Assembly: GCA_005239945.1 (NCBI GenBank)
Contig: SBAY01000363.1
Location: 1-44,783 of the forward strand
DNA length: 44,783 nucleotides
Reading direction: 5' to 3'
Source of the DNA: Nitrospira sp.
GTDB lineage: Bacteria; UBA9089; CG2-30-40-21; SBAY01
Shown here: positions 2,373 through 27,018 of the stretch, piece by piece
Position numbering within the stretch: position 1 is the first letter of the stretch
How the letters are laid out: every line of letters starts with the position of its first letter
Translations under genes and position numbers: made by a program
The notes under the pieces: generated by a model
Told to the model about the DNA's origin: nothing
Seen by the model: the letters and a program-made list of their open reading frames with translations, nothing else
Database searches by the model: none

Positions 2373-4295
2373 TTGGCTGAGTTAAGAATTTTAGAGATTA
2401 GTTTATTGTCCCTTCTGCTGATAACCTCTTTCTGCCCTGGTTTTAGAATACTCAAAATTCTTAGGGTTAGCCCAAATAGTTTCATGGAGGAAATTGTCTT
2501 CTGCCTCGGATTGGGACTGAGCAGCCTTTCTTTGCTCGTTTTAGAATTAGGGTTGCTCGGTCTTCTTTATGATTGGATTTTCTATGTCCTATTTGGGGTT
2601 GTATTAATTATTTTTTACCCGGAGTTATGGTATTTTTTACGCCGGCTGTGGTGTGCGAAAAACAAACGAATTCCAATGTGGATATTTATTCCCTTGTCTT
2701 TCACCCTTTTTTTAGCCATAATCTTACTCCTGGTTCCTACCATTACCTTTGATGCCCTGGTTTATCATTTAGCCGTGCCGCAAACCTACATCAAACACCA
2801 CAAAATTATTTATCTGCCCAACAACTGCTTTTCAAATTATACCTTTAATACCGAGATGCTCTTTACCCTGGGACTTTTATTAAAAGGGGACTTATTAGCT
2901 AAGTCTATACATTTTCTATTTGGGCTTTTGTCTGCCCTGGGGATTTACGCCTTAGCCAGAAGATATTTTGGCCAAAGGACAGCTTATTGGTCTGTTTTAG
3001 CTTTTTGTAGTATGCCTTTAGCCGTGTTTGTGGCTACGGCTGCCTTTAACGATTTTGCCCTTACCTTTTATGAAATTCTGGCGGTCTATGCCTTTATCAA
3101 CTGGTATCACGAGAAAAATCACGGTTGGTTATTGGTTTGTGGGCTGACCTGCGGATTGGCCATTGGTACAAAATACTTTGGTGGCTTTTGCTTTGTTATC
3201 TTATCCTTAAGTATTCTCTGGCTAACATGGCGTCAACAAGGTATCTTGAAAGGGCTCAAAACCACCGCGAGCTTTGCCATCTTAGTCCTCCTACCCAATC
3301 TCCCCTGGTTGATAAAAAACCTCATCTGGACAGGTAACCCTGTTTTCCCATTGTTTTATCCAATTTTGGGTGGGAAAAACTGGAGTCAATTTCTTTACAC
3401 CCAATATTTATACGAAATGACCCGCTATAGTCAGGGACATCACCTCTTCCTGAAACCATTTATCTTCCTCTGGGAGATAAGTTTTAAACAGGGAGGAGGG
3501 ATGGAGTCGGGCATAAAACTTACCGTTGGCCCAATATTTTTAAGCCTGCTACCTTTCCTTCTGCAATGGAGAAAATTAGATTTTGGCATCAAATATTTAC
3601 TTGCCTTCTGCGGGGTTTTCTTCCTCTTCTGGTCTTATGTCTGTGCCGTGGATAGATTTGCCTTACCTTGCTTTGTTTTGTTATGTGTTGTCGTTGGTTA
3701 TACGCTTGAACGCTTTAAAGGCAAACGCCTTTATCCCTGCCTCCTGGTTATTTTATTAATCAGTCTCTGCCTGAATTGGGGATATGTCTTCAAGGTTATC
3801 CACAAAAACGCGTATTTTATGTGTCTGAAAAAGGCAAATACCGAAAAATTCCTGCTTGAAAAATCCATCATCAAGGACTACTACGATGTTATTTCCTGGA
3901 GCAATCGTCATCTGCCAGCACAAAGCAAGGTTTTATTCATTGGTGAGGTGCGAAGTTACTACTGCCTAAGGGATAAATTAGTCGCCAGCCAATTTGATAC
4001 CAACATCATCCTCAAATTAATCCGTAAATCTAAAGGAATTGAAGGGTTGCTGTGGAATTTAAAACAGTCCGGGGTAACCCATGTGCTGGACAATGAAACA
4101 GGCACAAGGTGGCTAAATCAATACTTTGACTACTTCCATTGGAAAAACAATGGAGAAAAGGAATTATATAATTTATTCAGGCAGAATTACTTAAGGTTAA
4201 TCTATGTCCATGGGACAATAGCATTATTTGAAATTCAGGGGTTAGACTTAATTCACCACGGAAACACGGAGAAAAAGGTAATCGGTAGTTGGTAA
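2373..4295 (+). CDS. polytopic GT-C-fold membrane glycosyltransferase (GT39/ArnT/PMT_2-like)
   Basis: About 12 or more hydrophobic segments, a first-loop FDALVYH motif and a soluble C-terminal domain. Start is uncertain: TTG 2373 after AAAGGGGA, or ATG 2484. The ORF-track start at 2271 reads through the repeat. The C-terminal tail (..HHGNTEKKVIGSW) is encoded by the 4256-4362 palindrome. Confidence 0.55.
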   Translation: MAELRILEISLLSLLLITSFCPGFRILKILRVSPNSFMEEIVFCLGLGLSSLSLLVLELGLLGLLYDWIFYVLFGVVLIIFYPELWYFLRRLWCAKNKRIPMWIFIPLSFTLFLAIILLLVPTITFDALVYHLAVPQTYIKHHKIIYLPNNCFSNYTFNTEMLFTLGLLLKGDLLAKSIHFLFGLLSALGIYALARRYFGQRTAYWSVLAFCSMPLAVFVATAAFNDFALTFYEILAVYAFINWYHEKNHGWLLVCGLTCGLAIGTKYFGGFCFVILSLSILWLTWRQQGILKGLKTTASFAILVLLPNLPWLIKNLIWTGNPVFPLFYPILGGKNWSQFLYTQYLYEMTRYSQGHHLFLKPFIFLWEISFKQGGGMESGIKLTVGPIFLSLLPFLLQWRKLDFGIKYLLAFCGVFFLFWSYVCAVDRFALPCFVLLCVVVGYTLERFKGKRLYPCLLVILLISLCLNWGYVFKVIHKNAYFMCLKKANTEKFLLEKSIIKDYYDVISWSNRHLPAQSKVLFIGEVRSYYCLRDKLVASQFDTNIILKLIRKSKGIEGLLWNLKQSGVTHVLDNETGTRWLNQYFDYFHWKNNGEKELYNLFRQNYLRLIYVHGTIALFEIQGLDLIHHGNTEKKVIGSW

Positions 4296-4362
4296 TCGGT
4301 AATCAGGTAACTCTTTACCGATAACTGATTACCTTCTTCTCTGGGTCTCCGTGCCTCCGTGG
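4256..4362. repeat. nested palindrome (outer CCACGGA..CGGAG arms, inner GGTAATCGG/CCGATTACC-type arms)
   Basis: ccacggaaacacggagaaaaaggtaatcggtagttggtaatcggtaatcaggtaa ctc tttaccgataactgattacc ttcttctctgggtctccgtgcctccgtgg. It overlaps the stop codon of the upstream CDS and probably acts as a terminator hairpin. Confidence 0.75.
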
Positions 4363-5792: not shown

Positions 5793-5881
5793 AAATAGGT
5801 AAAAGGTAATCGATAAAAGGTAATCGGTTATCAGGTAAGTAGTTACCGATAACCGATTAACTTTTACCGATTACCTTATTT
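5793..5881. repeat. GGTAATCGG-word palindrome
   Basis: aaataggtaaaaggtaatcgataaaaggtaatcggttatcaggtaa gtag ttaccgataaccgattaacttttaccgattaccttattt. A long imperfect hairpin that nearly fills the trxA-downstream gap. Confidence 0.75.
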
Positions 5882-7441: not shown

Positions 7442-7517
7442 GAATGGTAAATGGTTATCGGTAATCAGGTAATCGGTTGTTACCGATTACCTGATTACCG
7501 ATAACCGATTACCATTC
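7442..7517. repeat. near-perfect GGTAATCGG-word palindrome
   Basis: gaatggtaaatggttatcggtaatcaggtaatcgg ttgt taccgattacctgattaccgataaccgattaccattc. It starts immediately after the def stop codon. Confidence 0.85.
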
Positions 7518-8335: not shown

Positions 8336-8364
8336 TTGACAATACGAATAAGGATAGGTATAAT
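8336..8364 (+). promoter_or_regulatory. consensus sigma70 promoter TTGACA-17-TATAAT abutting the guaA start (leaderless-type)
   Basis: TTGACA 8336-8341, 17-bp spacer, TATAAT 8359-8364. Only tagttt (6 nt) lies before ATG 8371, and there is no SD. Confidence 0.6.
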
Positions 8365-9921: not shown

Positions 9922-9983
9922 GGAGAAAGTAGTAACTTCCTATTGACTATTCCCTATTGCCTATTCCCTTACTAAAAAAATAC

Positions 9984-10012
9984 TTGCTTTTTTACCTCAG
10001 TTGTGGTATGAT
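9984..10012 (+). promoter_or_regulatory. sigma70-like promoter TTGCTT-17-TATGAT
   Basis: TTGCTT 9984-9989, 17-bp spacer, TATGAT 10007-10012. Followed by AAGGAG and ATG 10047. Confidence 0.5.
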
Positions 10013-10046
10013 AAGAAAGGATTGATTATAGAAAAGGAGAATAGAT

Positions 10047-10826
10047 ATGGTTTCAACAGTAGAGATAAGAAAAAGATTGGAAGATGTATTTGAAGTGAGG
10101 CAAGCAATAGTACTTGCAGATGTAATCGCAACCTCCTATAATGAGCTTGTAAAAACGAGTGATTTCAATGAACTCAAGGGAATAGTGAAAGAGATTGCCT
10201 GGGAAATAAAGGATCTCACCCAGGCACAGAAAAGAACTGAAATTAAGGTAGAAGAACTTGGCGAGGCTCAAAAAAGAACTGAAATTAAAGTAGAAGAACT
10301 TGGCGAGGCTCAGAAAGAAAGCCAAAAAGAGATAAGCAGACTTGATAAAACTATGCAAAAACTTGCTGAGGCTCAGAAAGAAACTCAAATCGAGATACAG
10401 TCGCTTACCAGAGGATTGAAAGAGACAAGGGGAGAAGTCGGTGGATTATCCAGAAGTGTAAGTTATGCCTTTGAAAATGAAGCCTACAGGATGTTACCCA
10501 AAATATTGAAGGAAACTTATGGAATTGAGATGAAGGAAAAGTTTATCAGAACTGAGATTGCTGGCAAAGAGATAAATATATTGGGTAGGGCAAAAATGAA
10601 TGGTAAAAATGTAGTCGTCATAGGAGAGGCAAAATTAAGACTTGAGGATAGACGAAAAAAAGAAGATCAAGATGTATTTAATGAGTTGGAGGAAAAAGTC
10701 CAGGCAGTAAAAAAGAATTATAAAGAAGAGCCAATTAGGGTGTTGATAACCCACTATGCTACAAAAAGCTTTATGAAAAAGGCAAAGGATAAAGAAATAT
10801 TAGTCATTCAAAGTTTTGAATGGTAA
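10047..10826 (+). CDS. coiled-coil (DUF3782-like AQKRTE repeats) protein with a C-terminal PD-(D/E)XK-like nuclease-fold domain
   Basis: The N-half has repeated LxEAQK(R/E)TE heptad-like segments. The C-half EINILGRAKMNGKNVVVIGEAKLRL contains an E-x-K motif after beta-strand-like segments. From memory it resembles proteins often mis-annotated as chordopoxvirus fusion protein. Function unknown. Confidence 0.5.
   Translation: MVSTVEIRKRLEDVFEVRQAIVLADVIATSYNELVKTSDFNELKGIVKEIAWEIKDLTQAQKRTEIKVEELGEAQKRTEIKVEELGEAQKESQKEISRLDKTMQKLAEAQKETQIEIQSLTRGLKETRGEVGGLSRSVSYAFENEAYRMLPKILKETYGIEMKEKFIRTEIAGKEINILGRAKMNGKNVVVIGEAKLRLEDRRKKEDQDVFNELEEKVQAVKKNYKEEPIRVLITHYATKSFMKKAKDKEILVIQSFEW
10224..10307 (+). 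repeat. 42-bp in-frame tandem duplication (AQKRTEIKVEELGE x2)
   Basis: Units at 10224-10265 and 10266-10307 differ at 3 nt. Degenerate further copies (gctcagaaagaaa) follow at about 10308 and 10366. Confidence 0.85.
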
Positions 10827-10860
10827 AAAACTTAATAAAAACAAAGGGAGGGAAAAGTAT

Positions 10861-11307
10861 ATGGAAAATCTTAAACCAATCAATATTTTGTTAGTTGAGG
10901 ATAATGAAGACGATATCCTCATTATCCAGCGGGCATTTAAGAAGGTAAAATTGATAAATGAACTCTATATTGTTCGTAATGGCCAGGATGGCCTGGATTT
11001 TGTTTTCCATGAGGGAATCTATGCACAAAACAAACCACCTACACCAGGACTTATCCTTTTAGATATTAATATGCCCAAGTTAAATGGCTTTCAGGTCTTA
11101 GAAAGAATTAAGGCACATCCTGTCTATAAGGTTATTCCTGTTATTATGCTCACTGTATCAGACAGGGATAAGGATATTGTTAGAAGTTATCAAACTGGTG
11201 CTGTTTCATATATTACTAAACCAATGAATTTTGAGGATTTTGTCACGGTCATTGAACAGTTTGAAATCTATTGGTCATTGGTCTCGAAAATACCGGAGGT
11301 GAAATAA
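10861..11307 (+). CDS. single-domain response regulator (CheY-like receiver)
   Basis: Trimmed to ATG 10861 after AGGGAGGGAAAAG. ILLVEDNEDD, LILLDINMPKLNG and a conserved T/K pattern (LTVS...KP). Confidence 0.85.
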   Translation: MENLKPINILLVEDNEDDILIIQRAFKKVKLINELYIVRNGQDGLDFVFHEGIYAQNKPPTPGLILLDINMPKLNGFQVLERIKAHPVYKVIPVIMLTVSDRDKDIVRSYQTGAVSYITKPMNFEDFVTVIEQFEIYWSLVSKIPEVK

Positions 11308-11334
11308 AGATAGTAAAACAGGCATCTTGCCTAT

Positions 11335-11495
11335 GAGGTAAGATATGCCACAAAATCACTAAGACACAAAGAATTAGCATTGAGCAAAGAGCACGGAGCA
11401 GGGAAATTCTTTTTTCTCCAGGCTCTATGCTCCAGGTTCAAAGCTCTCTCTTTGTGCCTTTGTGGCTAAAGAAATGTGTGTAAAGGAGGAAAAAA
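11335..11495 (+). repeat. structured ~140-170 bp repeat, copy 1 (5' of the porin-like gene)
   Basis: gatatgccacaaaatcac..agacacaaagaattagcattgagcaaagagcacggagcagggaaattcttttttctccaggctctatgctccaggttcaaagctc..ctttgtgcctttgtggctaaa. Terminal inverted repeats are GCCACAAA...TTTGTGGC. The tail atgtgtgtaaaggaggaaaaaa carries the SD and is shared with copy 3. Confidence 0.85.
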
Positions 11496-12656
11496 ATGTG
11501 TAAAAAAGGTTTAGTTTGTTTTCTGGGGTTGATTTTGGGTTTGCTAACTTCAGCATCAGTAACCGCTCAAGAAGAAGGGTTGGAATATGGATTCAAATCG
11601 GCTCTGCCAGAGATGCATGTGTTCATTACCAATCAATTTTATAACTATGGAAAGGCTGAATTTGGGAGGTATGCCAATGAAGGTGATAGCAAACTTGCAG
11701 GACACAGTGTCTTTATCCCTATGAGTGGCTATATCGACATTAGCTCTCAGCTTAACCCGGACATAAAGGCAGAGGCAGAATTCGAGCTTTACAGGGCTGA
11801 AAGTGTCAAGATTTGTAAATTACGCGGTGTCTGGTCACCAAAGGAGTGGTTTAACCTTTCTATGGGCAGGGATTTTGTGCCCATAGGAACACAGGATAAA
11901 AGCTATTATCCACCTTCTCGATTCAGGATGTTCACCGTGGCCCCTTACCTCTACCGAAATGTAATGCGTTCCTCTGGTTGGTGGGACACAGGGGTATTCA
12001 TTTCCGGCAAAAAACAACTTACAAAACAGGTAACCCTACTTTATAACATTTCTGCGACCAATGGACCCGGGGATTCACATCAAAGCTTTAATCTTGAAGA
12101 TAAGATGGGAATAGGAACTATCACGACAAATTATATGTATGAGCATTTCCATTCAGATGCCCGTCAGTATCTGGATAATAACGGTGATAAACCTATCTGT
12201 GTCAGGTTAGCCCTTTCTCCTAAGGAAGGTCTTGAGTTTGGCGGTTCTCACTTTAAGGCAAAATATGACAAGGAGGAGAAATACGGCTGTGATTACACCT
12301 TTTACCATTTATTATACGGCTCAGACAAATGGGATGTGGCCTGTGAGTATGGTAGGATAGGAATAGACACCAAAAATAACGGAAAGATTCATCAATCATC
12401 GGCCTACATTGCCACCAGTTACAAAATACTGCAAGAAAAATATGTCCATTTCCTTGCCCCGGTAATTAGATATGAAATTATTGACCCCTGGGAAGAAGAT
12501 ACAACGGATAAAGCTGACCGCAAATCCATAAGTATCGGGGTTAATATCTCCCCTGTCGAACATTTCTTAATTAGAGCCGCATATCAACGGACTAAAGAAA
12601 AGGGTCCTGAACTTAAAAATAATGGGGTAAGCGTAGAGACGGTATTTGATTTTTAG
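11496..12656 (+). CDS. outer-membrane beta-barrel porin-like protein
   Basis: Signal peptide ending SVTAQE, an alternating-polarity Tyr/Gly-rich sequence, and a C-terminal ..VETVFDF ending in Phe, as in OMP barrels. Family not identified. Confidence 0.5.
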   Translation: MCKKGLVCFLGLILGLLTSASVTAQEEGLEYGFKSALPEMHVFITNQFYNYGKAEFGRYANEGDSKLAGHSVFIPMSGYIDISSQLNPDIKAEAEFELYRAESVKICKLRGVWSPKEWFNLSMGRDFVPIGTQDKSYYPPSRFRMFTVAPYLYRNVMRSSGWWDTGVFISGKKQLTKQVTLLYNISATNGPGDSHQSFNLEDKMGIGTITTNYMYEHFHSDARQYLDNNGDKPICVRLALSPKEGLEFGGSHFKAKYDKEEKYGCDYTFYHLLYGSDKWDVACEYGRIGIDTKNNGKIHQSSAYIATSYKILQEKYVHFLAPVIRYEIIDPWEEDTTDKADRKSISIGVNISPVEHFLIRAAYQRTKEKGPELKNNGVSVETVFDF

Positions 12657-12665
12657 GGAGAATGT

Positions 12666-12905
12666 ATGGCACAGATAGAAATTCTGGAAGAAATCAAGAA
12701 ATTGCCGACAATAGAACGGTTAACAATCATTGAATCTGCCTTGCATTTGGTTTATGAAGATATTCAAGAAGTGAAGCATCCGATTGACCGCACCTCAAAA
12801 AAACGGCAGATGGCCACGGCAGCTAAAGTTTTATTGCCAGATTATGCAAGTAGTGGTGAACTGACCGCTTTTACATCCCTGGATAGTGAGAGGTTTTATG
12901 CGTAG
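12666..12905 (+). CDS. putative antitoxin (addiction-module component, short helical N-domain)
   Basis: 79 aa. ILEEIKKLPTIERLTIIESAL resembles the N-terminus of TIGR02574/DUF2281-like antitoxins. Its stop overlaps the start of the mazF-like gene (ATGCGTAG). Confidence 0.5.
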   Translation: MAQIEILEEIKKLPTIERLTIIESALHLVYEDIQEVKHPIDRTSKKRQMATAAKVLLPDYASSGELTAFTSLDSERFYA

Positions 12906-13242
12906 AGGTGAAATCTGGCTCATCAATTTGGACCCTGCGGTTGGTGCCGAGATTAAGAAAATCCGTCCATCGGTTGTTGTCAATGATGATGCTATTGGAA
13001 TTTTGCCACTGAAGGTAATCGTTCCTATTACCGAATGGAAAGACCATTATGCTATAGCCCCGTGGATGGTTTAGATAAAACCCGATGGAGAAAATGGTCT
13101 GGATAAACCTTCGGCAGCAGATACTTTTCAGGTGCGTTCAGTAGCACAAGAAAGACTTGTCAGACAAATAGGGAAACTTTCTGAGGCAACTATGCAAAAG
13201 ATCTCCAGGGCGCTGGCGGTTGTATTGAGTATTGAGTCATAA
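12898..13242 (+). pseudogene. mazF: MazF/PemK-family toxin interrupted by an in-frame TAG
   Basis: MRRGEIWLINLDPAVGAEIKKIRPSVVV...APWMV, then TAG at 13072-13074, then in the same frame IKPDGENGLDKPSAADTFQVRSVAQERLVRQIGKLSEATMQKISRAL. Together these form one full-length PemK-like sequence. Confidence 0.7.
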
Positions 13243-13995: not shown

Positions 13996-16242
13996 ATGAA
14001 AAGAGTAAGCATAAAGACCAAATTAATATTTTTTAGCAGTGTTTTGATGGCGGCGGTGGCGATTGTCTTGAGTTGGTATTTTCTAACCAGTGCCTCAAAT
14101 TTACTGCATAATGAATTGGAGAAAAAAGGGATAGAGGTTGTCCGCAATCTGAGCTATACCGCCAGAGAGGGAATCCTGACCAAAAACCTTTTTAAAGAAC
14201 TTAACCCATTGATTGAGGCAACGATGTGTGACCGGGATATTGTCTATGTAGCCGTAGTGGATAGAGAGGGTATGGTGTTGGTTCATAGCAAACCAGAAGA
14301 AACAGGGAAAATCTATAAAGACGAATTAACTAAAAGAGCCTTTTTATCCCAAAAACCTGCTTGTTTAAAGGAGGCACAAGGAATTATTACTATTGGTGCC
14401 GTTGTTGAAATTGGGGAAAAAGGAACAACACCCCTTGAGATGACACAAGAGATGGAGCAGGAAGAGAAAGGCCCCATCGGTGTCATTCTTATTGGGATTT
14501 CCTTAAAAAACCTTTATCTCAAGATGAATAATATCTTAAAGATTAGCCTGCCAATAACCATAGGGTTGATAATAATTGGGATTATTTTTGCCTTTTTGTT
14601 TTCTAAAAGAATAATAAAGCCGATTATATCTATAGCCGAGACCTCTCATGCCATTAGTAATGGTGATTTAACAAAACGCGTTGAGGTCAAAACTCACGAT
14701 GAGATTGGGGAATTAGCTGCTTCTTTTAACCAGATGACCGAGAATTTGAGAGATACCCTGGATAAGCTGGAAAAGAGCAAAAGAGAGATAGAAGAGGAAT
14801 CCCTGGAATTGGCTATTGGATTGTCAGAACATTTCGAGGTGCTGAGAAAGGTTGCTTCAGGGGATTTGAATGTTAATGCCCCTCTGACTTCAAAAAATGA
14901 GTTGTTGGTTAAGCTGGGAGAAGTAATTAATCATACCATAGCAAATCTGAAAATATTCGCTGATGAGGTAACGGTGAAAAAAGAGTTGGATCAAATATTT
15001 AATCTGACAGCCTCTGCCATCAGGGTAATTGATACGGATTTTAATGTTATAAAAGCCAATGAAAGGATTGCTCGGCTTATTGGTTCAAATAATGAGAGTC
15101 TTAGCGGGGTAAAATGTTATGACCAATTTAAAACGGATTTCTGTCATACTGAACAATGTCCACTGAAAAGGATATTAGCAGGGGAGGAAATAATAGAAGG
15201 TGAAATAGAACATGTGATGCTGTCAGGAGAAAAAATCCATTGCTTATTTAAAGCTGTGCCTTTTTGTAATCAGGAAGGAAAGATAATCGGGATGTTTGAA
15301 GATATTCGAGATATAACGGAATTAAAAAATCTGCAGAGAGAAATTCAGAATACTTCGATGGAGATGACTCGAGCACTTTCTCAACACTTTGAAGTATTGA
15401 ATAAAATTAGCCATGGAGATATAAGTGAACAAGCGATAGAAGATTCTAAAATTGAATTAATTGCTGAACTTGGACAGGTGATTAATCGGACAGGCAGATT
15501 GATTACTGCCAGAATCCAGGAGCTTGAAGCCGTTAATAAAGAGCTTGATGCCTTCACCTACTCTGCCTCACATGACTTGAAAGAGCCTTTAAGAGGGATA
15601 CAGTCCTTCAGTCAATTCATTTTAGAGGATTATGCGGATAAATTAGACGACACGGGAAAGGATTATCTCAGGAGGCTATCCGCCTCGGCTAACCGAATGA
15701 AATCCTTAATCGATGATTTACTTGCCCTGTCTAGAATTTCACGGATAAAAAATCCTTATGCCTCCGTAGATACAAATAAACTTGTTAAGGAGATTTTAAA
15801 GCAATTAAAACCAATAATCGAAGAAAAAAATGCAAAGGTCGAAATAGATGACGAGCTTCCATTTATCTATTGTGATGAGGTTAAAATAAAACAGGTTTTT
15901 TATAATCTTATCTCCAATGCTATTAAATATAATGTTCAAAAGCCGCCTAAGATTGAAATAGGAATTGAGGAGCAAGTAGTAGCTGGAAGAACTCAATCAG
16001 TCTTTTTTGTCAAGGATAATGGCATCGGTATTGAGGAAAAATATTTTGAGGAGATATTTGGGATATTTAAACGGCTGCATCAGAATAATGAGTATGAGGG
16101 AGGAACAGGGATAGGATTGGCTATTGTCAAGCGGGTTATAACCGACCATGGGGGAAAGGTCTGGGTCCAAAGCCCCCCTGGTGAAGGAAGCACCTTTTAT
16201 TTTAGCCTGCCGGGGAAGGAAGAGGTAACCGGTAATCGGTAA
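13996..16242 (+). CDS. sensor histidine kinase (periplasmic domain-TM-HAMP-PAS-HisKA-HATPase)
   Basis: Two TM segments flank a domain of about 150 aa. HAMP (ISNGDLTKRVEV..DEIGELAASFNQM), a PAS with a Cys-rich CYDQFKTDFCHTEQCP segment, the H-box FTYSASHDLKEPLR, and N/G boxes (NAIKY, DNGIGI, GGTGIGLA). The last codons (..EEVTGNR) lie in a GGTAACCGGTAATCGGTAA word. Confidence 0.88.
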   Translation: MKRVSIKTKLIFFSSVLMAAVAIVLSWYFLTSASNLLHNELEKKGIEVVRNLSYTAREGILTKNLFKELNPLIEATMCDRDIVYVAVVDREGMVLVHSKPEETGKIYKDELTKRAFLSQKPACLKEAQGIITIGAVVEIGEKGTTPLEMTQEMEQEEKGPIGVILIGISLKNLYLKMNNILKISLPITIGLIIIGIIFAFLFSKRIIKPIISIAETSHAISNGDLTKRVEVKTHDEIGELAASFNQMTENLRDTLDKLEKSKREIEEESLELAIGLSEHFEVLRKVASGDLNVNAPLTSKNELLVKLGEVINHTIANLKIFADEVTVKKELDQIFNLTASAIRVIDTDFNVIKANERIARLIGSNNESLSGVKCYDQFKTDFCHTEQCPLKRILAGEEIIEGEIEHVMLSGEKIHCLFKAVPFCNQEGKIIGMFEDIRDITELKNLQREIQNTSMEMTRALSQHFEVLNKISHGDISEQAIEDSKIELIAELGQVINRTGRLITARIQELEAVNKELDAFTYSASHDLKEPLRGIQSFSQFILEDYADKLDDTGKDYLRRLSASANRMKSLIDDLLALSRISRIKNPYASVDTNKLVKEILKQLKPIIEEKNAKVEIDDELPFIYCDEVKIKQVFYNLISNAIKYNVQKPPKIEIGIEEQVVAGRTQSVFFVKDNGIGIEEKYFEEIFGIFKRLHQNNEYEGGTGIGLAIVKRVITDHGGKVWVQSPPGEGSTFYFSLPGKEEVTGNR

Positions 16243-16271
16243 AGAGTTACCATTTCATAAGGAGTACAACT

Positions 16272-17720
16272 ATGTCAGAAGCTAAAAGAATTTTACTGGT
16301 CGAAGACAATCCGAATGATGTGCTTGTTGTGAAACGATTTTTGAGCAAGACCGCCGAGAGATTTGAGGTTGAGGTAGCAACTACAGGAAAAGAGGGAATA
16401 GAAAAACTCAAAAAGGGGAATTTTGACTGCTTATTGCTTGACTATAGGCTACCGGATACAAATGCCTTAGAGTTTTTACAAAACAAGGAATTTCCAGATG
16501 TTCCGGTCATTATTCTTACCGGCTTGAAGGATGAGCGGCTTCTTATCGGGGCATTAAAACTTGGCGTAGTTAATTTCCTCACCAAAGACGAGATTTCCGG
16601 TGAGATTCTTTACCATTCCATCCTGAATGCCCTGTCCTCAAAACAAAAAAGTCAATTCTTAGAAGAGAAAAAAGAATATATCTATGAGGGGTTAATGAAC
16701 TCCATGGGGCAAGGATTATTTGCCCTTGACTTAAACGATAACATCGTTTTTATCAATCAAAGACTCGCTGAAATCTTAGGCTATCAAGAATTTGAGTTAT
16801 TGGGTAAGCCTGTCTTTAATTTAATCGATGAAAAGGATATTGAAACCTTTCGGAATGAATATTCCAAAGTCAAATCAGGCAAGAGAACTGATTTTGAAAT
16901 GCTTCTGACATCGAAAATGAAAGAAAAAATCCATGTTTTTATTAATCAGACGCCTTTGTTCGATAACAATGGTGTTTTTAACGGCAGCCTTTCTTTGGTA
17001 GCGGATATTACCAATTTAAAGGAAATGGAAAAAAGATTGAGGGAGGCTGAGAAATTAACGATGATGACTCAAATTGCCTCAGAAACCGCACATGAAATTA
17101 GAAATCCATTGACTGTCATCAAAGGTGGACTCTATCTGCTGAAGATGACCTTGCCAAAAGAAAAAGCTATAGAGGAGCAAATTTCACAAATAGATAGGGC
17201 TGTTGATAGGGTAAATGCCCATATGGATGACCTGTTGAATCTTTCAAAACCCCCTGTGCTCAAATTAAGGACAGCGAATATAAATGGCCTTATCGAGGAA
17301 GCCTTAGCTGAGGTGCCACCTGAGATTCTTTCAAATATAGAGGTAATAAAGAAGTTGGAAGATGGTTATCCGCAAGTAAATGTTGATAGCGAGAGATTAA
17401 AGCGGGTTTTTATAAACCTGATTAAAAATGCCTTAGAATCTATGGAAGGAAAAGGAAAATTGCGGATTGCGGTTCATAGAGAGCAAATTAAAAAAAGGGA
17501 ATTTATCTCCATAACATTTGAGGATACAGGATACGGAATCCCGGAGGATGACTTAGAAAAGATTTTTGACCCTTTCTACACGACTAAAACTAAAGGGACA
17601 GGGTTAGGATTGGTTATTTGCAAACGGATTATCGATGCCCATCATGGAAACATAGAAGTGCAGAGTAAGGTTGGTATTGGCACAACATTTACGGTTCAAC
17701 TGCCGATTTTTAGTTCTTAA
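16272..17720 (+). CDS. hybrid receiver-PAS-histidine kinase
   Basis: N-terminal REC (ILLVEDNPND, LLLDYRLPD), a PAS (FALDLNDNIVFINQRLAEILGY), the H-box ASETAHEIRNPL, and HATPase (DTGYGIP, GTGLGL). Confidence 0.88.
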   Translation: MSEAKRILLVEDNPNDVLVVKRFLSKTAERFEVEVATTGKEGIEKLKKGNFDCLLLDYRLPDTNALEFLQNKEFPDVPVIILTGLKDERLLIGALKLGVVNFLTKDEISGEILYHSILNALSSKQKSQFLEEKKEYIYEGLMNSMGQGLFALDLNDNIVFINQRLAEILGYQEFELLGKPVFNLIDEKDIETFRNEYSKVKSGKRTDFEMLLTSKMKEKIHVFINQTPLFDNNGVFNGSLSLVADITNLKEMEKRLREAEKLTMMTQIASETAHEIRNPLTVIKGGLYLLKMTLPKEKAIEEQISQIDRAVDRVNAHMDDLLNLSKPPVLKLRTANINGLIEEALAEVPPEILSNIEVIKKLEDGYPQVNVDSERLKRVFINLIKNALESMEGKGKLRIAVHREQIKKREFISITFEDTGYGIPEDDLEKIFDPFYTTKTKGTGLGLVICKRIIDAHHGNIEVQSKVGIGTTFTVQLPIFSS

Positions 17721-17728
17721 CATAAAGA

Positions 17729-17895
17729 CTTCTGCGAAATAAGAAATGTTAAGCGAGGAGAGATATGCCACAAAGTCACCAAAACACAAAGAATTAGCAT
17801 TGAGCAAAGAGCACGGAGCATGGAAATTCTTTTTTCTCCAAGCTCTATGCTTCAGGCTCAAAGTTTTTTTAGTGCCTTTGTGTCTTTGCGGCTAA
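17729..17895 (+). repeat. structured ~140-170 bp repeat, copy 2 (5' of queC)
   Basis: Nearly identical core to copy 1 (..gatatgccacaaagtcacc..acacaaagaattagcattgagcaaagagcacggagcatggaaattcttttttctcc..). The upstream extension cttctgcgaaataagaaatgttaagcgagg is shared with copy 3. Confidence 0.85.
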
Positions 17896-17921
17896 TTAGT
17901 TGAAAGATAACGAGGGGAAAA

Positions 17922-18728
17922 ATGAAAAAGGCAGTTATCTTGCTTTCCGGGGGATTGGATTCTACTACCACCCTTTATTGGGCAAAAAATCAAGGATACA
18001 CTTGCGTCTGCCTGATTTTTGACTACGGCCAGCGACATCGAAAGGAAGTTCAATGTGCCATAAAAATAGCCGAGAGGATAGGCTGTGAATTCCAGGTAAT
18101 CAAATTCAAGTTTCCCTGGCTGAGAAGTGCGTTACTTGATAAAAGGATGCCTATTCCTAATTCCTCCTTAATAACGGGGGGCAGTGAATATCCCCCCTTA
18201 ATAAAGGGGGTCAGGGGGTGTTCCCCCTTAATAAAGGGGGTCAGGGGGTTGTCTCCTACAGAAATTCCATCTACTTATGTTGTTTCATCCAATCCAAAAT
18301 CCAAAATCCAAAATCCAAAATTCCAAACAGAAATTCCATCCACTTATGTTCCAGCCCGCAATACCATCTTTCTCTCCTTTGCCCTATCTTGCGCCGAGGC
18401 AATTGGGGCACAGACAATAATTATAGGGGCTAACGCCTTAGACTACAGTGGTTATCCTGATTGTCGTCCTGAATATTACGAGGCATTCAGGAAGGTAGCG
18501 GCACTTGGAACCAAACAAGGCGTGGAAGACAAACCAATAGAAATTCTTACCCCATTAATTAATAAGACAAAGGCGGAAATCGTAAAATTAGGGCTCAGCC
18601 TTAATGTCCCGTTTGAACTAACCTGGTCATGCTACAAAGGTGGCAAAAACCCCTGTGGGAAATGCGATAGCTGTTTGTTGCGAAGTAAAGGCTTTAACGA
18701 GGCAAAAATACAGGACCCGATATTATAG
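17922..18728 (+). CDS. queC: 7-cyano-7-deazaguanine synthase with a ~55-aa repeat-derived in-frame insertion
   Basis: SGGLDSTT PP-loop, DYGQRH, TYVPARN, DYSGYPDCR and the C-terminal Zn site CYKGGKNPCGKCDSC are all present. About 268 aa, against about 220-230 aa recalled for E. coli and B. subtilis QueC. The extra segment maps to 18161-18326. Confidence 0.88.
   Translation: MKKAVILLSGGLDSTTTLYWAKNQGYTCVCLIFDYGQRHRKEVQCAIKIAERIGCEFQVIKFKFPWLRSALLDKRMPIPNSSLITGGSEYPPLIKGVRGCSPLIKGVRGLSPTEIPSTYVVSSNPKSKIQNPKFQTEIPSTYVPARNTIFLSFALSCAEAIGAQTIIIGANALDYSGYPDCRPEYYEAFRKVAALGTKQGVEDKPIEILTPLINKTKAEIVKLGLSLNVPFELTWSCYKGGKNPCGKCDSCLLRSKGFNEAKIQDPIL
18161..18250 (+). repeat. 3 x 30-bp tandem hairpin units (CCCCC-TTAATAAA-GGGGG) inside queC
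   Basis: Units are ttcctccttaataacggggggcagtgaata / tccccccttaataaagggggtcagggggtg / ttcccccttaataaagggggtcagggggtt. They translate as SSLITGGSEY / PPLIKGVRGC / SPLIKGVRGL. Confidence 0.9.
18258..18350 (+). repeat. 24-bp direct repeat flanking a 45-bp AATCCAAAAT-word insert inside queC
   Basis: acagaaattccatctacttatgtt (18258-18281) and acagaaattccatccacttatgtt (18327-18350) both encode TEIPSTYV. Between them lies gtttcatccaatccaaaatccaaaatccaaaatccaaaattccaa, the same word as the intergenic hairpin arm at 21094-21125. Confidence 0.9.
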
Positions 18729-19790: not shown

Positions 19791-19899
19791 TATTTAAATA
19801 CCTCCTTGAATTATTAATTAAAAATTATGAATTAAAAATTAAAAATTGAGGGATAAGAAAGTATCTTTTCCTTGATTTTCAATTCATAATTCATAATTT

Positions 19900-20937
19900 T
19901 TAATTTCTCAATTTCTCTACTATTTTCTTGACTTCTTCTGCCCTTTCCTTGGCACAGATAAGGATAGCCTCTCCACTATCCACGATAATCAAATCAGAGA
20001 TTCCAAGTGTAGCAATCATTTTTTTATCTCCCCTGATGATACAATTTTGCGTATCGATTCCCACATGTTCACCCAGGACAACATTATTATTTTCATCTTT
20101 AGGATATATCCTTTCCAAAGCCTTCCATGAACCAACATCGTCCCAGATAAAATCCCCTTCGAGCATCAGGATATTTTTCGCCTTTTCCATTACACCAAAA
20201 TCTATAGAGATATTTTCTACCTCCTGATAGAATTCCTCTAACTCAGCCTCCCGGCAATTTTGAATTTTTATTAATCCTGAATATAACCCGGGCATAAATT
20301 TAGAAAAGGCATTAAGAATTGCCTGGACATGCCAGATAAATATACCACTATTCCAGAAATACCCTCCTTGAGCAATAAACCCCCTGGCGGTATCCAGATT
20401 GGGTTTTTCTTTAAATGAATGGACCTTATAAATAGAGATACCATTTTTTATCTCTACTTTTTTATCCACTTCTATATAGCCATAACCTGTTTCAGGACGG
20501 GTAGGTTTAATCCCAAAGGTGATAAGATTTTCTTTTTTTTGAGCCAACTCATAACCCAGGGATAAAATCTTTAAAAATTTCTCCTCATCCGGAATAAAAT
20601 GGTCTGCCGGTAAAACCACAAAGCTTGCGTCTTTATCCTTTTTCCTTAAGTACAAAGCGGCTAAGGCAATAGCCGGAGCAGTGTTCTTTCGCCCTGGCTC
20701 AACAATAATATTATCCTGAGTAAGACTACTAATTCCAGACAGAATTTTATCCCCGATGTTTTTATTGGTAACAATCAATATCCGCTCTCGTGGAATCAAA
20801 GGGGCAATTCGAGTAAGCGTTTCCTCTAATAATGTCTTTTTGCCTGTAATTGATAATAATTGTTTGGGTGTATCTGGTTTACTTTTTGGCCAGAATCTAT
20901 CCCCAAATCCACCTGCCAGAATCACACCATAAAGCAT
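19900..20937 (-). CDS. manC: mannose-1-phosphate guanylyltransferase (no PMI domain)
   Basis: ILAGGFGDRFWPKS N-terminal nucleotidyltransferase motif, VLPADHFI and GYGYIE. 345 aa. Confidence 0.8.
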   Translation of the reverse strand: MLYGVILAGGFGDRFWPKSKPDTPKQLLSITGKKTLLEETLTRIAPLIPRERILIVTNKNIGDKILSGISSLTQDNIIVEPGRKNTAPAIALAALYLRKKDKDASFVVLPADHFIPDEEKFLKILSLGYELAQKKENLITFGIKPTRPETGYGYIEVDKKVEIKNGISIYKVHSFKEKPNLDTARGFIAQGGYFWNSGIFIWHVQAILNAFSKFMPGLYSGLIKIQNCREAELEEFYQEVENISIDFGVMEKAKNILMLEGDFIWDDVGSWKALERIYPKDENNNVVLGEHVGIDTQNCIIRGDKKMIATLGISDLIIVDSGEAILICAKERAEEVKKIVEKLRN

Positions 20938-21019: not shown

Positions 21020-21218
21020 CTCAGGTAATCCCTCAGTTACCAGTTAATACCAAATGGATTTTGGATTTTGGATTGAGGAATCTTAATATCCTTAATCCAA
21101 AATCGAAAATCTAAAATCCAAAATTGTAATCGTAATCTGATACCTGATAGCTTACCAACCGGTAACTGAGGCATTACGTAATCGGTGATCGGTAAATATT
21201 TATCTGATTACCGATTAC
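21020..21218. repeat. compound palindrome: CCTCAGTTACC/GGTAACTGAGG outer arms, GGATTTTGG/CCAAAATCC inner hairpin, then a GGTAATCGG-word hairpin
   Basis: ctcaggtaatccctcagttacc..ggattttggattttggatt gaggaatcttaatatcctt aatccaaaatcgaaaatctaaaatccaaaatt..ccggtaactgaggcattacg, then taatcggtgatcggtaaatatttatctgattaccgatta. It lies between the lptC stop and the manC promoter. Confidence 0.8.
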
Positions 21219-21219
21219 C

Positions 21220-21768
21220 TTACTTAATAACTATCCGTACCTTTTCTTTGATTTCTATTCTATCCTTATCGGAATCAATTTCTAATCCATAACCGGACAG
21301 ATGTGCCTTGCCATAAATCACGGTTACCTTATCCGGTGTAATCAAAATTCCTGATTTAGCCCTCCACCTGAGGGTATTGGTTATAAATTCTGCCCCATCT
21401 TTAGTTACTGCTTTAACATCATTCTTTAGTTCGATATCCCTTGTTTGGGTATCTAAAATCCCTTTTTTAGCCGCTACATTTAGAATAGGTTCGTTAGTCT
21501 GTTTTGCTGAGAAAAATACGCATTTAATCTCCTCAAGATTGGTTTGTGTTTGAGTAACCTCTGCCTCTTTCGCCCATAATTCCCATTGTGGTTTACCACC
21601 TATTGTCTCTATGAGATGAAATCCACTCAAGCCTAATTCTGCACCTGGGGATTGGGTAGCGGAATCTTTCTCTGTCGGCTCTGTTTTATCCCCTTTTTTT
21701 ACTAAAAGCAAGATGATAATTAAAGTCAAAACTACGATGATTAGCCCATAAACCCTTAACTTCCTCAT
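21220..21768 (-). CDS. lptC: LptC-like periplasmic LPS-export protein
   Basis: A single N-terminal TM anchor followed by a beta-rich domain of about 150 aa. It lies directly downstream of, and is coupled to, kdsD, sharing one nt (21768) between the kdsD stop codon and the lptC start codon. The call rests on position and architecture. Confidence 0.55.
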   Translation of the reverse strand: MRKLRVYGLIIVVLTLIIILLLVKKGDKTEPTEKDSATQSPGAELGLSGFHLIETIGGKPQWELWAKEAEVTQTQTNLEEIKCVFFSAKQTNEPILNVAAKKGILDTQTRDIELKNDVKAVTKDGAEFITNTLRWRAKSGILITPDKVTVIYGKAHLSGYGLEIDSDKDRIEIKEKVRIVIK

Positions 21769-22814: not shown

Positions 22815-23004
22815 CTTCAATTCAGACATTAGACCATCGACTAAAGACTTAAGTCGTAAGCGGTTAGCCGAAAGATTACTCTTTCAGTTTTTGGAGGAGA
22901 CAGGTGTTCATCCATTATCTTTTTCTCCATCTGAAAGCTGACGGTTGAATGTTTACGACTTAAGTCTGATGTCTAAAGTCTGAAGTCTAATGTCTGAATT
23001 GAAG
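22815..23004. repeat. ~190-bp imperfect palindrome between the ybbR-like gene and kdsD
   Basis: Left arm cttcaattcagacattagac..gacttaagtcgtaa..ctttcag..tggagga. Right arm ttctcca..ctgaaag..ttacgacttaagtc..gtctaatgtctgaattgaag. Perfect sub-stems of 14 bp (gacttaagtcgtaa) and about 15 bp (ttcaattcagacatt). Confidence 0.8.
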
Positions 23005-23435: not shown

Positions 23436-23485
23436 CTATCCTCCCTGAATATAATTAACAATTAATAATTGATAATTGTTAATTG

Positions 23486-24274
23486 TTAATTGATTTCTGA
23501 CTTCTCTGTAAAACCTTCTGTCTCTTTTGCCTTATAAAGGGTAAGCATTTCTGTCAGGCTTTCTTCATCTAAATTACTACGCATCTTTCCATCCATGGCA
23601 ATAGATATACTTCCTGTTTCTTCAGAGACAACCAGAATTAAGGCGTCTGTTTCTTCAGATAGTCCCAGGGCCGCCCGATGTCTCGTTCCCAGTGGTATAG
23701 TTACATCAGGATTTTGAGTTAGTGGTAAGACACAACTTGCGGCTATTATTTTATCTTCCTGAATGATTACTGCCCCATCATGTAGGGGACTATCAGGGGT
23801 AAATATTGTCTTTAGCAGTTCATAACTTACCTCTGCATTTATTCTTACTCCTGTTTCTATATAATTTTTTAGACTTATATTTTGTCTTAAAACAATTAAT
23901 GCCCCTGAACCTTCCTTTGATAGAGCCATGATTACCCTTACAATTTCGGTGATTAATTTACTTTCTTGCTTGAAAAATTTCTTTAAAATATAATTTTTGT
24001 CAATTTCTCCTATGACTCGTCTTAATTCCGGTTGAAATAAAATCACAAAGGCTAAAGGTAAAATAGTCCATAAACTTCGAAGAATCCAATCTATCGTGTA
24101 TAATTGAAGTAAATGTGCACCAAAGGAGGCAATAATCAGAAAGGCAAGGACCTTCAACCCCTGGACAGCCCTTGTCTCTCTTATCAAGATAAATAACCAA
24201 TAAAAGATACAACTAATAAGTAATATCTCTAAAATATCTAAAAATCTAATTGCCAGTGGAAAAAAATTAATCAT
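23486..24274 (-). CDS. cdaA: diadenylate cyclase CdaA (3 TM + DAC domain)
   Basis: Three N-terminal TM helices, with the DAC motifs SPLHDGAVII, GTRHRAALGLSEETDA and VVSEETG. Confidence 0.9.
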   Translation of the reverse strand: MINFFPLAIRFLDILEILLISCIFYWLFILIRETRAVQGLKVLAFLIIASFGAHLLQLYTIDWILRSLWTILPLAFVILFQPELRRVIGEIDKNYILKKFFKQESKLITEIVRVIMALSKEGSGALIVLRQNISLKNYIETGVRINAEVSYELLKTIFTPDSPLHDGAVIIQEDKIIAASCVLPLTQNPDVTIPLGTRHRAALGLSEETDALILVVSEETGSISIAMDGKMRSNLDEESLTEMLTLYKAKETEGFTEKSEIN

Positions 24275-24294
24275 CTTGTTCCCCTATTATCTGT

Positions 24295-24328
24295 GTCAGA
24301 CCAGTCTAACCTGTCTGACTGGTCTGAC
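24295..24328 (-). terminator. 12-bp-stem hairpin after rho (GTCAGACCAGTC / GACTGGTCTGAC)
   Basis: A perfect 12-bp inverted repeat with a 10-nt loop lies between the rho stop (24333) and the cdaA start (24274). No U-tract follows, so terminator function is uncertain. Confidence 0.4.
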
Positions 24329-24332
24329 TATT

Positions 24333-25595
24333 CTATCCTCTATTTATCGCCATTAAAAACTCCTTATTACTTTTTGTAGCCAGCATTTTCTCAACTATCA
24401 ATTCCATACTCTCAACCGGACTTAAGGGAGTAATTGCCTTACGCAGAAGCCAGACTTTATTTAAATCCGCTTCATCTAAAAGTAATTCTTCTTTGCGTGT
24501 GCCGGATTTAAGTATATTGATTGCAGGGAATAATCTGCGGTCAACTAAACTACGATCCAAAAGTACCTCCATATTCCCAGTGCCTTTGAACTCCTCAAAG
24601 ATAACATCATCCATTCTACTACCGGTATCAATCAAGGCGGTAGCTAAAATAGTCAAACTGCCGCCTTCTTCAATATTTCGTGCCGCACCAAAGAATCTCT
24701 TTGGCCGCTGTAAAGCATTTGAATCCACACCACCGGAAAGCACCTTACCTGAGGTAGGTACTACCTGATTATGTGCCCGGGCTAATCGGGTAATGCTATC
24801 TAAAAGAATAACCACATTGTGTTTATGTTCTACCAGCCTTTTTGCCTTTTCGATGACCATATCAGCTACCTGGACATGTCGGGTTGGAGGTTCATCGAAG
24901 GTAGAACTTATCACCTCACCCTTGACAGACCTTTCCATATCCGTAACCTCTTCAGGACGCTCATCAATCAATAAAACAATTAATTTTATATCCGGGTGAT
25001 TAGTGGTAATCGAATTAGCTAATTTCTGTAATAAAACCGTTTTCCCTGTGCGTGGTGGTGCCACAATCAATCCTCGCTGACCGGCTCCAATAGGTGTAAG
25101 TAAATCCATAATCCGCATAGATATTTCTTCTGCCCCTCGTTCTAAGTGAATCCTTTTCTGGGGATATAATGGTGTCAGGTTATCAAATAATATCCTATCT
25201 GAGGCCTTAGATGGGTCATTAAAATTAACAGCCTCTACCTTCAGAAGGGCAAAAAACTTCTCGTTCTCCTTAGGTGGTCTTATTTGCCCGGAGACCGTAT
25301 CCCCTGTCTTTAGACTAAATTTCCTTATCTGGGAAGGTGAGATATAAATATCATCAGGGGAAGGCAGGTAATTATATTTTGGAGACCTTAAAAAACCATA
25401 TCCATCAGGCAATGTCTCCAATACCCCTTCACCAAACAAAAGCCCTTTTTCTTGTGCTTGAGCTTGTAAAATGGCAAAGATAAGCTCTTGCTTTTTCATC
25501 CCACTTACACCCTCGATTTTCAAATTATGGGCTAAGTCGCTTAATTTTGAAATACTCATCCCTTGCAAGTCCACTAAGTTAAGTTGTGCTTCCAC
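24333..25595 (-). CDS. rho: transcription termination factor Rho
   Basis: 420 aa. GTG start with GGAGG 8 nt upstream. Rho N-terminal domain, the RNA-binding GFGFLR-like GYGFLRS, Walker A APPRTGKT, and the C-terminal SGTRKEELL. Confidence 0.96.
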
Positions 25596-25789
25596 TATTT
25601 TTTCCTCCTTTTACACACATTTTTTAGCCACAAAAACACAAAGACACTAAAAAGCTTTGAACCTGAAGCATAGAGCCTGGAGAAAAAGGATTTCCATGCT
25701 CCGTGCTCTTTGCTCAATGCTAATTCTTCGTGTCTTGGTGACTTTGTGGTACATCTCCCCTTCCTTAACATTATCTCATTTTGCAGAAA
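25596..25789 (-). repeat. structured ~140-170 bp repeat, copy 3 (5' of rho, minus orientation)
   Basis: The reverse complement reads ..ctgcaaaatgagataatgttaaggaaggggagatgtaccacaaagtcaccaagacacgaagaattagcattgagcaaagagcacggagcatggaaatcctttttctccaggctctatgcttcaggttcaaagc..gtctttgtgtttttgtggctaaaaaatgtgtgtaaaaggaggaaaaaata GTG(rho). Confidence 0.85.
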
Positions 25790-25795
25790 TCCTTT

Positions 25796-26701: not shown

Positions 26702-26762
26702 GTAAAAAATTAAGGAAATTAAAAAAATTCATCTCTTTTAAAAAATCCCCCTAACTTTTAAT

Positions 26763-27017
26763 AATCGTTCAAAGGATGGAATTTTTGAGGGGGAAAACCT
26801 TTTGAAAAAGGTTTACCCCCTCAAACTCCCCTTTTCCAAAACTTTTTAACAACAAGAGTATAAAATTTTATTTACCCCATTTCTTATAAATGGGTAAATA
26901 AAATTTTATACTCTTGTGGTTAAAAAGTTTTTAGGAAGAGAGGGGTTTAAGGGGAGAGAAACATTTTTTTCAAAAAGGGTTTCTCTCCCCTTAAAAAACA
27001 CCTCTCTTTGAACAATT
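26763..27017. repeat. ~255-bp compound palindrome: closing stem plus three hairpins
   Basis: The closing stem aatcgttcaaag (26763-26774) pairs with ctttgaacaatt (27006-27017). H1 is 26784-26825 (tttgaggggg..ccccctcaaa). H2 is 26836-26935, a stem of about 45 bp (aaactttttaacaacaagagtataaaattttatttaccc / gggtaaataaaattttatactcttgtggttaaaaagttt). H3 is 26951-26990 (ggggagagaaac / gtttctctcccc). Confidence 0.85.
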
Positions 27018-27018
27018 A

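Follow-up and report, generated by a model that had tools for sequence, protein, structure and literature searches.

Three functionally unrelated genes, a porin-like gene, queC and rho, are each preceded by a near-identical structured element in a 44,783-nt stretch of DNA from Nitrospira sp. (contig SBAY01000363.1 of assembly GCA_005239945.1, hereafter the window). This arrangement raises the question of what the element does there: is it a shared regulatory leader, a cassette that supplies 5' untranslated regions (UTRs), or a repeat that was copied into these spacers? The original prediction, made from the letters of the window, named a shared cis-regulatory leader RNA and a mobile UTR cassette resembling a MITE (a miniature transposable element with inverted repeats). 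We compared the copies, their predicted folds and the orthologous junctions of related genomes, and we favor the last answer. With a probability of about 0.68, the element is a genome-specific, non-coding, palindromic MITE-like repeat of the ERIC, Correia or 'putative mobile promoter' class, which was recently copied into spacers between genes and forms an intercistronic hairpin in read-through transcripts.

We found that copy 1 is located at 11339-11481 on the plus strand (143 nt, delimited by alignment and by a covariance model score of 143 bits), between a response-regulator gene (10816-11307) and the porin-like gene (11496-12656). Copy 2 is located at 17725-17896 on the plus strand (172 nt, 150 bits), between a hybrid histidine kinase gene (16272-17720) and queC (17922-18728). 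Copy 3, the most complete one, is located at 25615-25795 on the minus strand (~181 nt, 152 bits), between a CBS-like gene (25796-26488) and rho (24333-25595). The architecture of the element is a nested hairpin of ~125 nt with a 5' extension of ~45 nt, missing from copy 1, and a 3' tail of ~10 nt (AAATGTGTG), missing from copy 2. The copies, 143-181 nt long with a G+C content of 40-43%, contain no conserved open reading frame (ORF).

The near-identical core of these three copies, as originally proposed, was confirmed. Pairwise identity over the hairpin is 90.4-92.2%, and one 30-mer, GAATTAGCATTGAGCAAAGAGCACGGAGCA, is exact in all three copies (11371-11400 and 17791-17820 on the plus strand, 25697-25726 on the minus strand), with no match in 100 shuffles. 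The additional 5' sequence common to copies 2 and 3 is also present, at ~45 nt instead of the predicted ~35 nt, and by eye we estimate that it is less similar than the core. A 1-nt indel between copies was said to shift the frames of the small ORFs at 17604-17861 and 25657-25860. Both ORFs exist, the indel is located in column 63 of the copy alignment, and copy 1 has stops. In addition, (GAGAGTA)2-3 heptamers at 25796-25810 precede copy 3 and add a few codons to the upstream ORF.

The covariance model was built from the three copies and then run on the window and on the loci of relatives. In the window it recovered the three copies at 143-152 bits and their own reverse strands at 50-58 bits, while the remaining matches (20-36 bits) were unrelated hairpins. 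Thus, there are exactly three copies in the 44.8 kb of the window. Logan unitigs of sample SRR6943130, an independent assembly, match the window at 99.98-100%, and their ends fall inside the copies (11427, ~17810, 25639 and 25699). Since de Bruijn assembly is expected to stop at a repeat, this independently supports the junctions between unique flanks and element. Exact-protein look-ups of window genes returned only short unitigs of one sample, again stopping inside the copies, and the look-up of queC returned no record. Exact-match scans for the core in genome, metagenome (two different blocks) and viral contig collections gave no matches. Likewise, a six-frame pseudo-protein query against a set of 5.8 billion proteins, which looked for spurious ORFs across other copies, gave none.

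Each copy is predicted to fold into a single long imperfect hairpin with a core of ~120-126 nt, and the consensus contains 42 base pairs. The folding energies are -51.8 kcal/mol (z = -5.55) for copy 1 (11347-11466, plus strand), -48.5 kcal/mol (z = -4.84) for copy 2 (17767-17892, plus strand) and -52.5 kcal/mol (z = -5.22) for copy 3 (25627-25750, minus strand). The inverted arms GCCACAAAG and CTTTGTGGC enclose an inner module, GAGCACGGAGCA..TTTTTTCTCC..GCTCTATGCT, as described in the original prediction, and both are parts of this hairpin. In copies 2 and 3 the arms do not reach the ends, because 45 nt of common sequence are located outside them. By direct reading, the outer arms are built from 8-mer-like CACAAAGn repeats (CACAAAGT CACCAAGA CACAAAGA and the complement). 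The inner arms consist of four degenerate heptamers (AGCAnnG / CTyyAnG) around a T-rich loop (TTTTTT in copy 1), with AGCATTG AGCAAAG AGCACGG AGCATGG in the 5' arm and CTCCAGG CTCTATG CTTCAGG TTCAAAG in its partner.

A stable predicted structure upstream of three genes could point to a conserved cis-regulatory leader, attenuator or small RNA that jointly controls the porin-like gene, queC and rho. Some details of the fold are in line with this. In all three copies, the 5' inner arm shows no variation over 30-32 nt, whereas at least 6 sites vary in the 3' arm that pairs with it. We roughly estimate the chance probability of this difference at 0.05-0.1, and it could hint at a constraint on the sequence itself, for instance as the target of a protein or of an antisense RNA. 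Five pairs show one-sided changes from G-C to G-U. Variable columns are more frequent among unpaired positions (15/49, 31%) than among paired ones (11/84, 13%), and they number 17 in the 3' half against 9 in the 5' half. The excess in unpaired columns fits retention of the hairpin and is not proof of selection.

Other observations speak against such a leader. The covariation that the original prediction had proposed as a check did not appear, as 0 of 42 pairs are compensatory and six are broken in one copy, a count that carries no statistical power with three copies at ~90% identity. The complementary strand folds as well as the sense strand (-47 to -55 kcal/mol). No Rfam 15 family matched at gathering thresholds, and at E <= 10 only chance matches to miRNA and snoRNA families were seen. 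Moreover, the three genes are functionally unrelated. The decisive evidence came from the orthologous junctions.

Homologues of Rho place the organism near Candidatus Desantisbacteria, whose proteins so named are 82-85% identical; five closer relatives have Rho identities of 98, 97, 96, 90 and 90%. We designated the rho loci of these five L084-L088, the loci of porin-like orthologues L089-L091, and two more distant rho loci L002 and L003. L084 and L089 together form the 22-kb contig JASEHU010000004.1 of the sister genome, GCA_030018635.1. This contig is syntenic with the window over 8.3-26.7 kb at 88% nucleotide identity, and its BLAST homology breaks at 11311-11481, 17725-17915 and 25611-25818, which are the three copies. 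The copies themselves are 90-92% alike, against 88% for orthologous coding DNA between the two genomes.

The element is absent from each orthologous junction. Between the CBS-like gene and rho, L087 and L088 have no spacer, and the upstream stop overlaps the Shine-Dalgarno (SD) sequence. At this junction L084 has an 82-nt spacer with a GAATTAT-heptamer hairpin, L085 an unrelated hairpin, and L086 an extra gene and a 9-nt tandem array; L002 and L003 also lack the element. The junction between the kinase gene and queC holds a different repeat of ~189 nt in L084/L089 and another hairpin in L090. Upstream of the porin-like gene, L089, L090 and L091 have other sequences. The original prediction had suggested a search of related genomes, and here the covariance model found no copy in ~1.46 Mb of loci, made up of ~99 kb of close relatives (L084-L091) and of 80 rho loci from further afield. 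Because the element is missing at all three orthologous junctions, across eight relatives, it represents a recent gain specific to the genome of the window and not a conserved leader. The comparison of orthologues largely refutes the leader, and we consider joint control of the three genes extremely unlikely.

The relatives also allowed us to delimit the insertions. For copy 1, the left flank at 11308-11338 (AGTAAAACAGGCATCTTGCC; AGATAGTAAAACAGGCATCTTGCCTATGAGG) is homologous to L090, where it lies downstream of the orthologous response-regulator gene and is therefore ancestral, and homology to the sister contig returns at 11482. A MAFFT match of this flank to the 5' extension of copy 3 was rejected as spurious, since L090 shows that the flank is ancestral. 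For copy 2, the flanks TTCTTAACATA and TAGTTGAAAGATAAC match the site CATAGTGAAAGGTAAC in the sister genome. For copy 3, flank homology to L084-L088 stops at ..aaagagta and restarts at GTAAAAGGAGGA.

These boundaries bear on the proposal that the shared 3' segment provides the SD of the porin-like gene and of rho. We found that both SDs are located outside the element. The SD and spacer of the porin-like gene occupy 11482-11495 on the plus strand (AAAGGAGGAA..ATG), and the SD AAAGGAGGAAnnAAA-ATG is present in L089, L090 and L091. Those of rho occupy 25596-25614 on the minus strand (GTAAAAGGAGGAAAAAATA before the GTG start), and GTAAGGAGGAcAAAATA-RTG is present in L084, L085 and L086. All of these loci are without the element. 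Within the 3' segment common to copies 1 and 3, only ~10 nt (AAATGTGTGT) are new. Both SDs thus predate the element, which refutes a UTR cassette that supplies them.

A related explanation is that the element is a mobile promoter or 5'-UTR cassette that brings a transcription or translation signal, with its orientation under selection. Putative mobile promoters are defined as stretches of 50 nt or more that are at least 80% identical and lie in the -150..-50 regions of non-paralogous genes (PMC3575422), and the core of the element lies at -150..-50 of all three start codons with 90-92% identity. In addition, all three copies are co-oriented with the downstream gene, as predicted, and end 14-25 nt before its start codon. 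Copy 3 contains TGAGATAAT, which by direct reading resembles an extended -10 string, and each copy has an SD-like GGAG and an ATG at the foot of the 5' arm.

However, we found no sigma-70-type promoter in any copy, although perfect consensus promoters occur elsewhere in this organism, and copies 1 and 2 do not preserve the -10-like string. Perfect TTGACA-17-TATAAT sites (12/12) are located in spacers at 8336-8364, 21005-20977 and 33364-33336, several consensus promoters are preceded by TTTTTAC, and an 11/12 site at 26701-26673 lies ahead of the CBS-like/rho gene string. The SDs are ancestral, as described above. The GGAG and ATG give ORFs of 5, 10 and 35 codons in different frames, and a leader peptide was therefore rejected as well. 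The orientation, for all three copies alike, has a p value of 0.25, which confirms the statistical weakness acknowledged in the original prediction. Furthermore, the upstream gene is co-oriented too in all three cases (response regulator/porin-like, hybrid kinase/queC, CBS-like/rho), so the element is as much 3' of one gene as 5' of another. Orientation relative to replication was also considered. An IS200/IS605-like dependence on the replication strand is unlikely for this family, given that copies 1 and 2 share one DNA strand while copy 3 occupies the other, all within 15 kb, and that GC skew just tracks the direction of the genes. Taken together, we regard a mobile promoter or UTR cassette as very unlikely.

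The same data guide our view of transcription through the MITE-like repeat. No copy carries an intrinsic terminator (a G+C-rich stem followed by a U tract) on its sense strand. Given that it has neither a promoter nor a terminator of its own and that canonical promoters lie further upstream, the element is most probably read through within a polycistronic mRNA. There it would form a stable intercistronic hairpin of ~-50 kcal/mol that leaves the SD free. Any effect is likely to be modest and generic, for example as a barrier to 3' exonucleases or as a site of RNase III-type processing by which the two cistrons become uncoupled, and regulation specific to one gene is unlikely. The window has about as many terminator-like sites as shuffled sequence (21 against 18.4; 19 against 15.9), and hence the lineage may rely on Rho, on hairpins without U tracts, or on both.

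Support for recent copying comes from the sister genome, where the locus L084 contains three copies of an unrelated nested-hairpin MITE of ~189 nt within ~8 kb. Two copies are intact (3493-3680 and 9942-10130, 188-189 nt) and one is truncated (~2470-2640). This family ends in 11-nt inverted repeats, GGGAYGGTTCA, and is flanked by 8-bp target duplications without mismatches (ATAATTGA; TTACCTTT). The insertion site of one copy is exactly the apex of an ancestral CAATTAA-heptamer hairpin, which the window keeps uninterrupted at 23453-23491, and another copy lies in the kinase/queC spacer, where the window has copy 2 of its own element. On one DNA strand, the two intact copies read in the same direction, although the genes around them point in opposite directions, so that their orientation to genes is not fixed. 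The sister family is absent from the window. Classical transposition of nested-hairpin MITEs into such spacers thus occurs in this genus, and each genome has its own repeat burst.

We propose that, once the lineage had split from its nearest sequenced relative, copies of the element entered three or more A-rich sites between co-directional housekeeping genes, each just upstream of an SD that already existed. Copying could have occurred by mobilization in trans or by recombinational copy-paste. By the definition of PMC3184786, the element has most of the features of a MITE in that it is small (<~400 bp), multi-copy, without a transposase, folded as a long stem-loop, and present or absent at orthologous sites. 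The MITE-like part of the original prediction therefore stands as regards a small, multi-copy, non-coding palindrome missing from orthologous sites. It does not extend to clean terminal repeats and target duplications, which are not demonstrable; for this reason, we describe the element as MITE-like, a new family of a known kind.

Several observations weigh against this assignment. The window contains no transposase and no integrase, no RAYT gene was seen there, and only three copies are found within 45 kb. There is no terminal inverted repeat beyond the hairpin arms at the ends delimited against relatives. The ends are ragged, as copies 1 and 2 each lack one terminal part. Direct repeats in the flanks are imperfect and A-rich (7/8 in copy 3, GAGTAAAA / GTGTAAAA; weaker in copies 1 and 2), and a flanking TA is possible at all three copies and is not significant at 38% G+C. 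Finally, the uniform co-orientation with transcription and the concentration of variation in unpaired columns (31% against 13%) are both compatible with some selection at the RNA level.

The ragged ends could also be explained by homogenization of hairpins without any transposase. Here, the genus would maintain stem-loops in nearly all co-directional spacers, created on the spot by expansion of 7-9-nt tandem units and then inverted duplication, and conversion or template switching would have carried one such nested hairpin to other hairpin-bearing spacers. In line with this, both arms of the element consist of degenerate 7- and 8-nt tandem units, and clear terminal repeats and target duplications are missing. 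GGAGCGT heptamer hairpins at 32551-32943 show 86-90% complementarity to the inner arm (the invariant 30-mer specifically to the hairpin arm at 32652-32680). Relatives carry other hairpins at the same junctions, so a hairpin may have pre-existed, and GGTAATC-type hairpins recur at five spacers of the window. Nevertheless, the ~45-nt 5' extension, which is not palindromic, and the 3' tail were copied along with the hairpin, and we saw no conversion tracts reaching into the flanking genes. The sister family, with its textbook terminal repeats and 8-bp duplications, also indicates that classical transposition operates in the genus. We therefore judge homogenization rather unlikely.

A MITE-like repeat of this form can be placed among the many repeat-built hairpins native to these genomes. 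GGTAATC / GATTACC-type heptamer hairpins are located directly after stop codons in five spacers (4257-4353, 5803-5877, 7442-7517, 16223-16251 and 21170-21221). Some of their arms contain TAACTGA, a heptamer discussed for Beggiatoaceae (PMC4679880). Other repeat-built hairpins are found at 19816-19905, 22815-23004, 23453-23491 and 26743-27036. Relatives carry their own. In the rho/cdaA spacer (24275-24332) and the spacer between cdaA and the next gene (23436-23485), every relative in L084-L088 has a different hairpin between conserved flanks, for example one of GTCAGAC, GGGGTTA or GGTGAAT heptamers, or else the MITE of the sister genome. Stem-loops thus seem to be exchanged rapidly at fixed 'slots'. 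Our element resembles a nested hairpin of this native pool that acquired the ability to be copied.

Similar repeats are also present in frame inside genes. Two (GGAGCGT)n-TTTTTTT-(GTGCTCC)n hairpins (32551-32680 and 32830-32943) are located inside ORF 30812-33364 on the minus strand, which encodes an 850-amino-acid TMEM260-like O-mannosyltransferase/TPR protein (a glycosyltransferase). In the match to the Pfam TMEM260-like profile, 173 profile positions extend over 224 residues, consistent with inserts. Within queC, we found an in-frame insert of three 30-nt units (18160-18249) and an (AAAATCC)n run at ~18292-18320. On either side of the heptamer run lies one copy of a 23-nt direct repeat, cagaaattccatcYacttatgtt (18259-18281 and 18328-18350), by which the motif EIPSTYV is doubled. 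The insert (within 18160-18350) is wholly absent in L090, whose QueC has 218 amino acids, and the number of 30-nt units differs in L089.

Hairpins of locus-specific 7-9-nt repeats thus occupy nearly all co-directional spacers, are completely exchanged between genomes whose flanking genes are 88% identical, nest within each other (as the sister MITE does in the CAATTAA hairpin), and have counterparts in frame in two essential genes, queC and the TMEM260-like gene. The element may be one visible outcome of a genus-wide process, which we consider possible but doubtful. Such a process is not known to have been described for this candidate phylum, and our search for literature on Desantisbacteria with hairpins or repeats found nothing relevant. 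If true, it would imply either a dedicated mechanism that generates or targets hairpins, or strong selection that favors stem-loops between cistrons regardless of their sequence, in an organism without an excess of intrinsic-terminator-like sites over shuffled sequence. The three-copy element would then be a 'successful' hairpin turned copyable.

Further repeat structures were observed in these regions. The hairpin at 26743-27036 is a nested palindrome of ~300 nt with several concentric inverted repeats, located between lpxK and the promoter of the CBS-like/rho gene string. A 213-nt inverted pair at both ends of L087 (1-213 and 16187-16399) is related to it. The tandem array of L086 (3918-4084) has ~17 or more copies of a 9-nt unit (AACTTTATG / AACTTTACA) directly upstream of the rho SD, and follows an inserted gene of the 23S_rRNA_IVP family. 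An unrelated rho locus, L072 (Desulfococcaceae bacterium HSG8), has 10 long hairpins in 14 kb, the densest of the loci checked in a blastn-based scan.

The position of the copies between co-oriented genes could also recall the recombination sites by which gene cassettes are marked, such as attC-like sites of integrons or other site-specific ones. Imperfect palindromes of ~125 nt in a single orientation bear a superficial likeness to the VCR arrays of Vibrio. The flanks of the element, however, are housekeeping genes that are syntenic in relatives without it. Direct reading of the hairpin ends revealed no RYYYAAC / GTTRRRY core sites, and the window has no integrase, as noted above. We give such sites a vanishingly small chance.

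The genes of the window are those of an ordinary chromosome with a G+C content of 38%. They include fumarase, thioredoxins, def, guaA, two-component systems, queC, GDP-mannose genes, lptC, a kdsD-like gene, cdaA, rho, lpxK, gatB, gap and a type IV pilus ATPase gene. Upstream of the response-regulator gene next to copy 1, an ORF of 259 amino acids (10047-10826) contains 42-nt tandem coding repeats (10207-10397) and has no Pfam match. We found nothing homologous to it in the syntenic sister contig, where guaA is followed by 86 nt and then by the response-regulator gene. Small genes of toxin-antitoxin or defense type were gained and lost at the same junctions, in the window (~12660-13100 and 42778-43511) and in L084, L086 and L089-L091; among them are PemK, NTase/HEPN, AbiEii, PIN/PhD, HicAB and PDDEXK_3.

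Taken alone, the element is one more lineage-specific MITE-like intergenic repeat. It matters for annotation, because it breaks assemblies, makes spurious small ORFs and could pass for a riboregulator of rho or queC. It also gives an entry point to a wider pattern, as Desantisbacteria-like genomes seem to turn over intergenic stem-loops very fast and to tolerate them in frame inside enzymes. These genomes are naturally suited to asking whether 'any hairpin' between cistrons is needed in bacteria whose intrinsic terminators are not enriched, and how hairpins of short tandem repeats turn into mobile elements.

Among known systems, the ERIC elements (IRU) of Enterobacteriaceae, listed here with RU-1/2/3, have orientation-dependent effects on mRNA. 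ERIC is an imperfect palindrome of ~127 bp (PMC3184786), close to the ~120-126-nt core of our element. Both are intergenic and multi-copy, present or absent at orthologous sites, located in transcribed spacers, and form a long stem-loop in RNA (PMC3184786). However, there is no sequence similarity, the phylum is different, and the TA target duplication of ERIC is not demonstrable here. The element further differs in its arms of degenerate 7- and 8-nt tandem repeats, its nested inner hairpin and its non-palindromic 45-nt 5' extension. Correia elements of Neisseria (CREE/NEMIS) are often co-transcribed with genes, and their hairpin is a potential substrate of RNase III. They are MITEs of 100-160 bp (PMC3184786) and lie close to gene starts, like the element. 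They also have well-defined terminal inverted repeats of 26 bp, a duplicated TA, a site for IHF and terminal promoters; the element showed none of these features, and no promoter consensus was found in it.

Putative mobile promoters (Matus-Garcia, Nijveen and van Passel 2012; PMC3575422) likewise place similar sequence at -150..-50 of unrelated genes in one genome. This class is purely operational, and promoter function is unsupported for the element. REP and REPIN sequences resemble it as intergenic palindromes and selfish dispersed repeats, and they are known stabilizers of mRNA 3' ends (PMC3184786; PMC3116915). They differ in being 20-40 bp long, G+C-rich, tagged with GTAG/CGTC and mobilized by RAYT, whereas the element is ~4 times longer with 40-43% G+C, and the window shows no RAYT gene. 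The cyanobacterial STRR and the TAACTGA repeats of Beggiatoaceae share 7-nt tandem units that are intergenic near start codons and occasionally inside ORFs (PMC4679880). Those are direct arrays of a fixed heptamer, in contrast to the locus-specific inverted arrays here, which form hairpins and are degenerate in the element. The sister-genome MITE is unrelated in sequence and differs in its 11-nt terminal repeats, its 8-bp duplications and its occurrence in both orientations to genes. Even so, it belongs to the same genus, has about the same length, combines a unique outer part with an inner heptamer hairpin in the same nested manner, and occupies the same kind of spacer between co-directional housekeeping genes.

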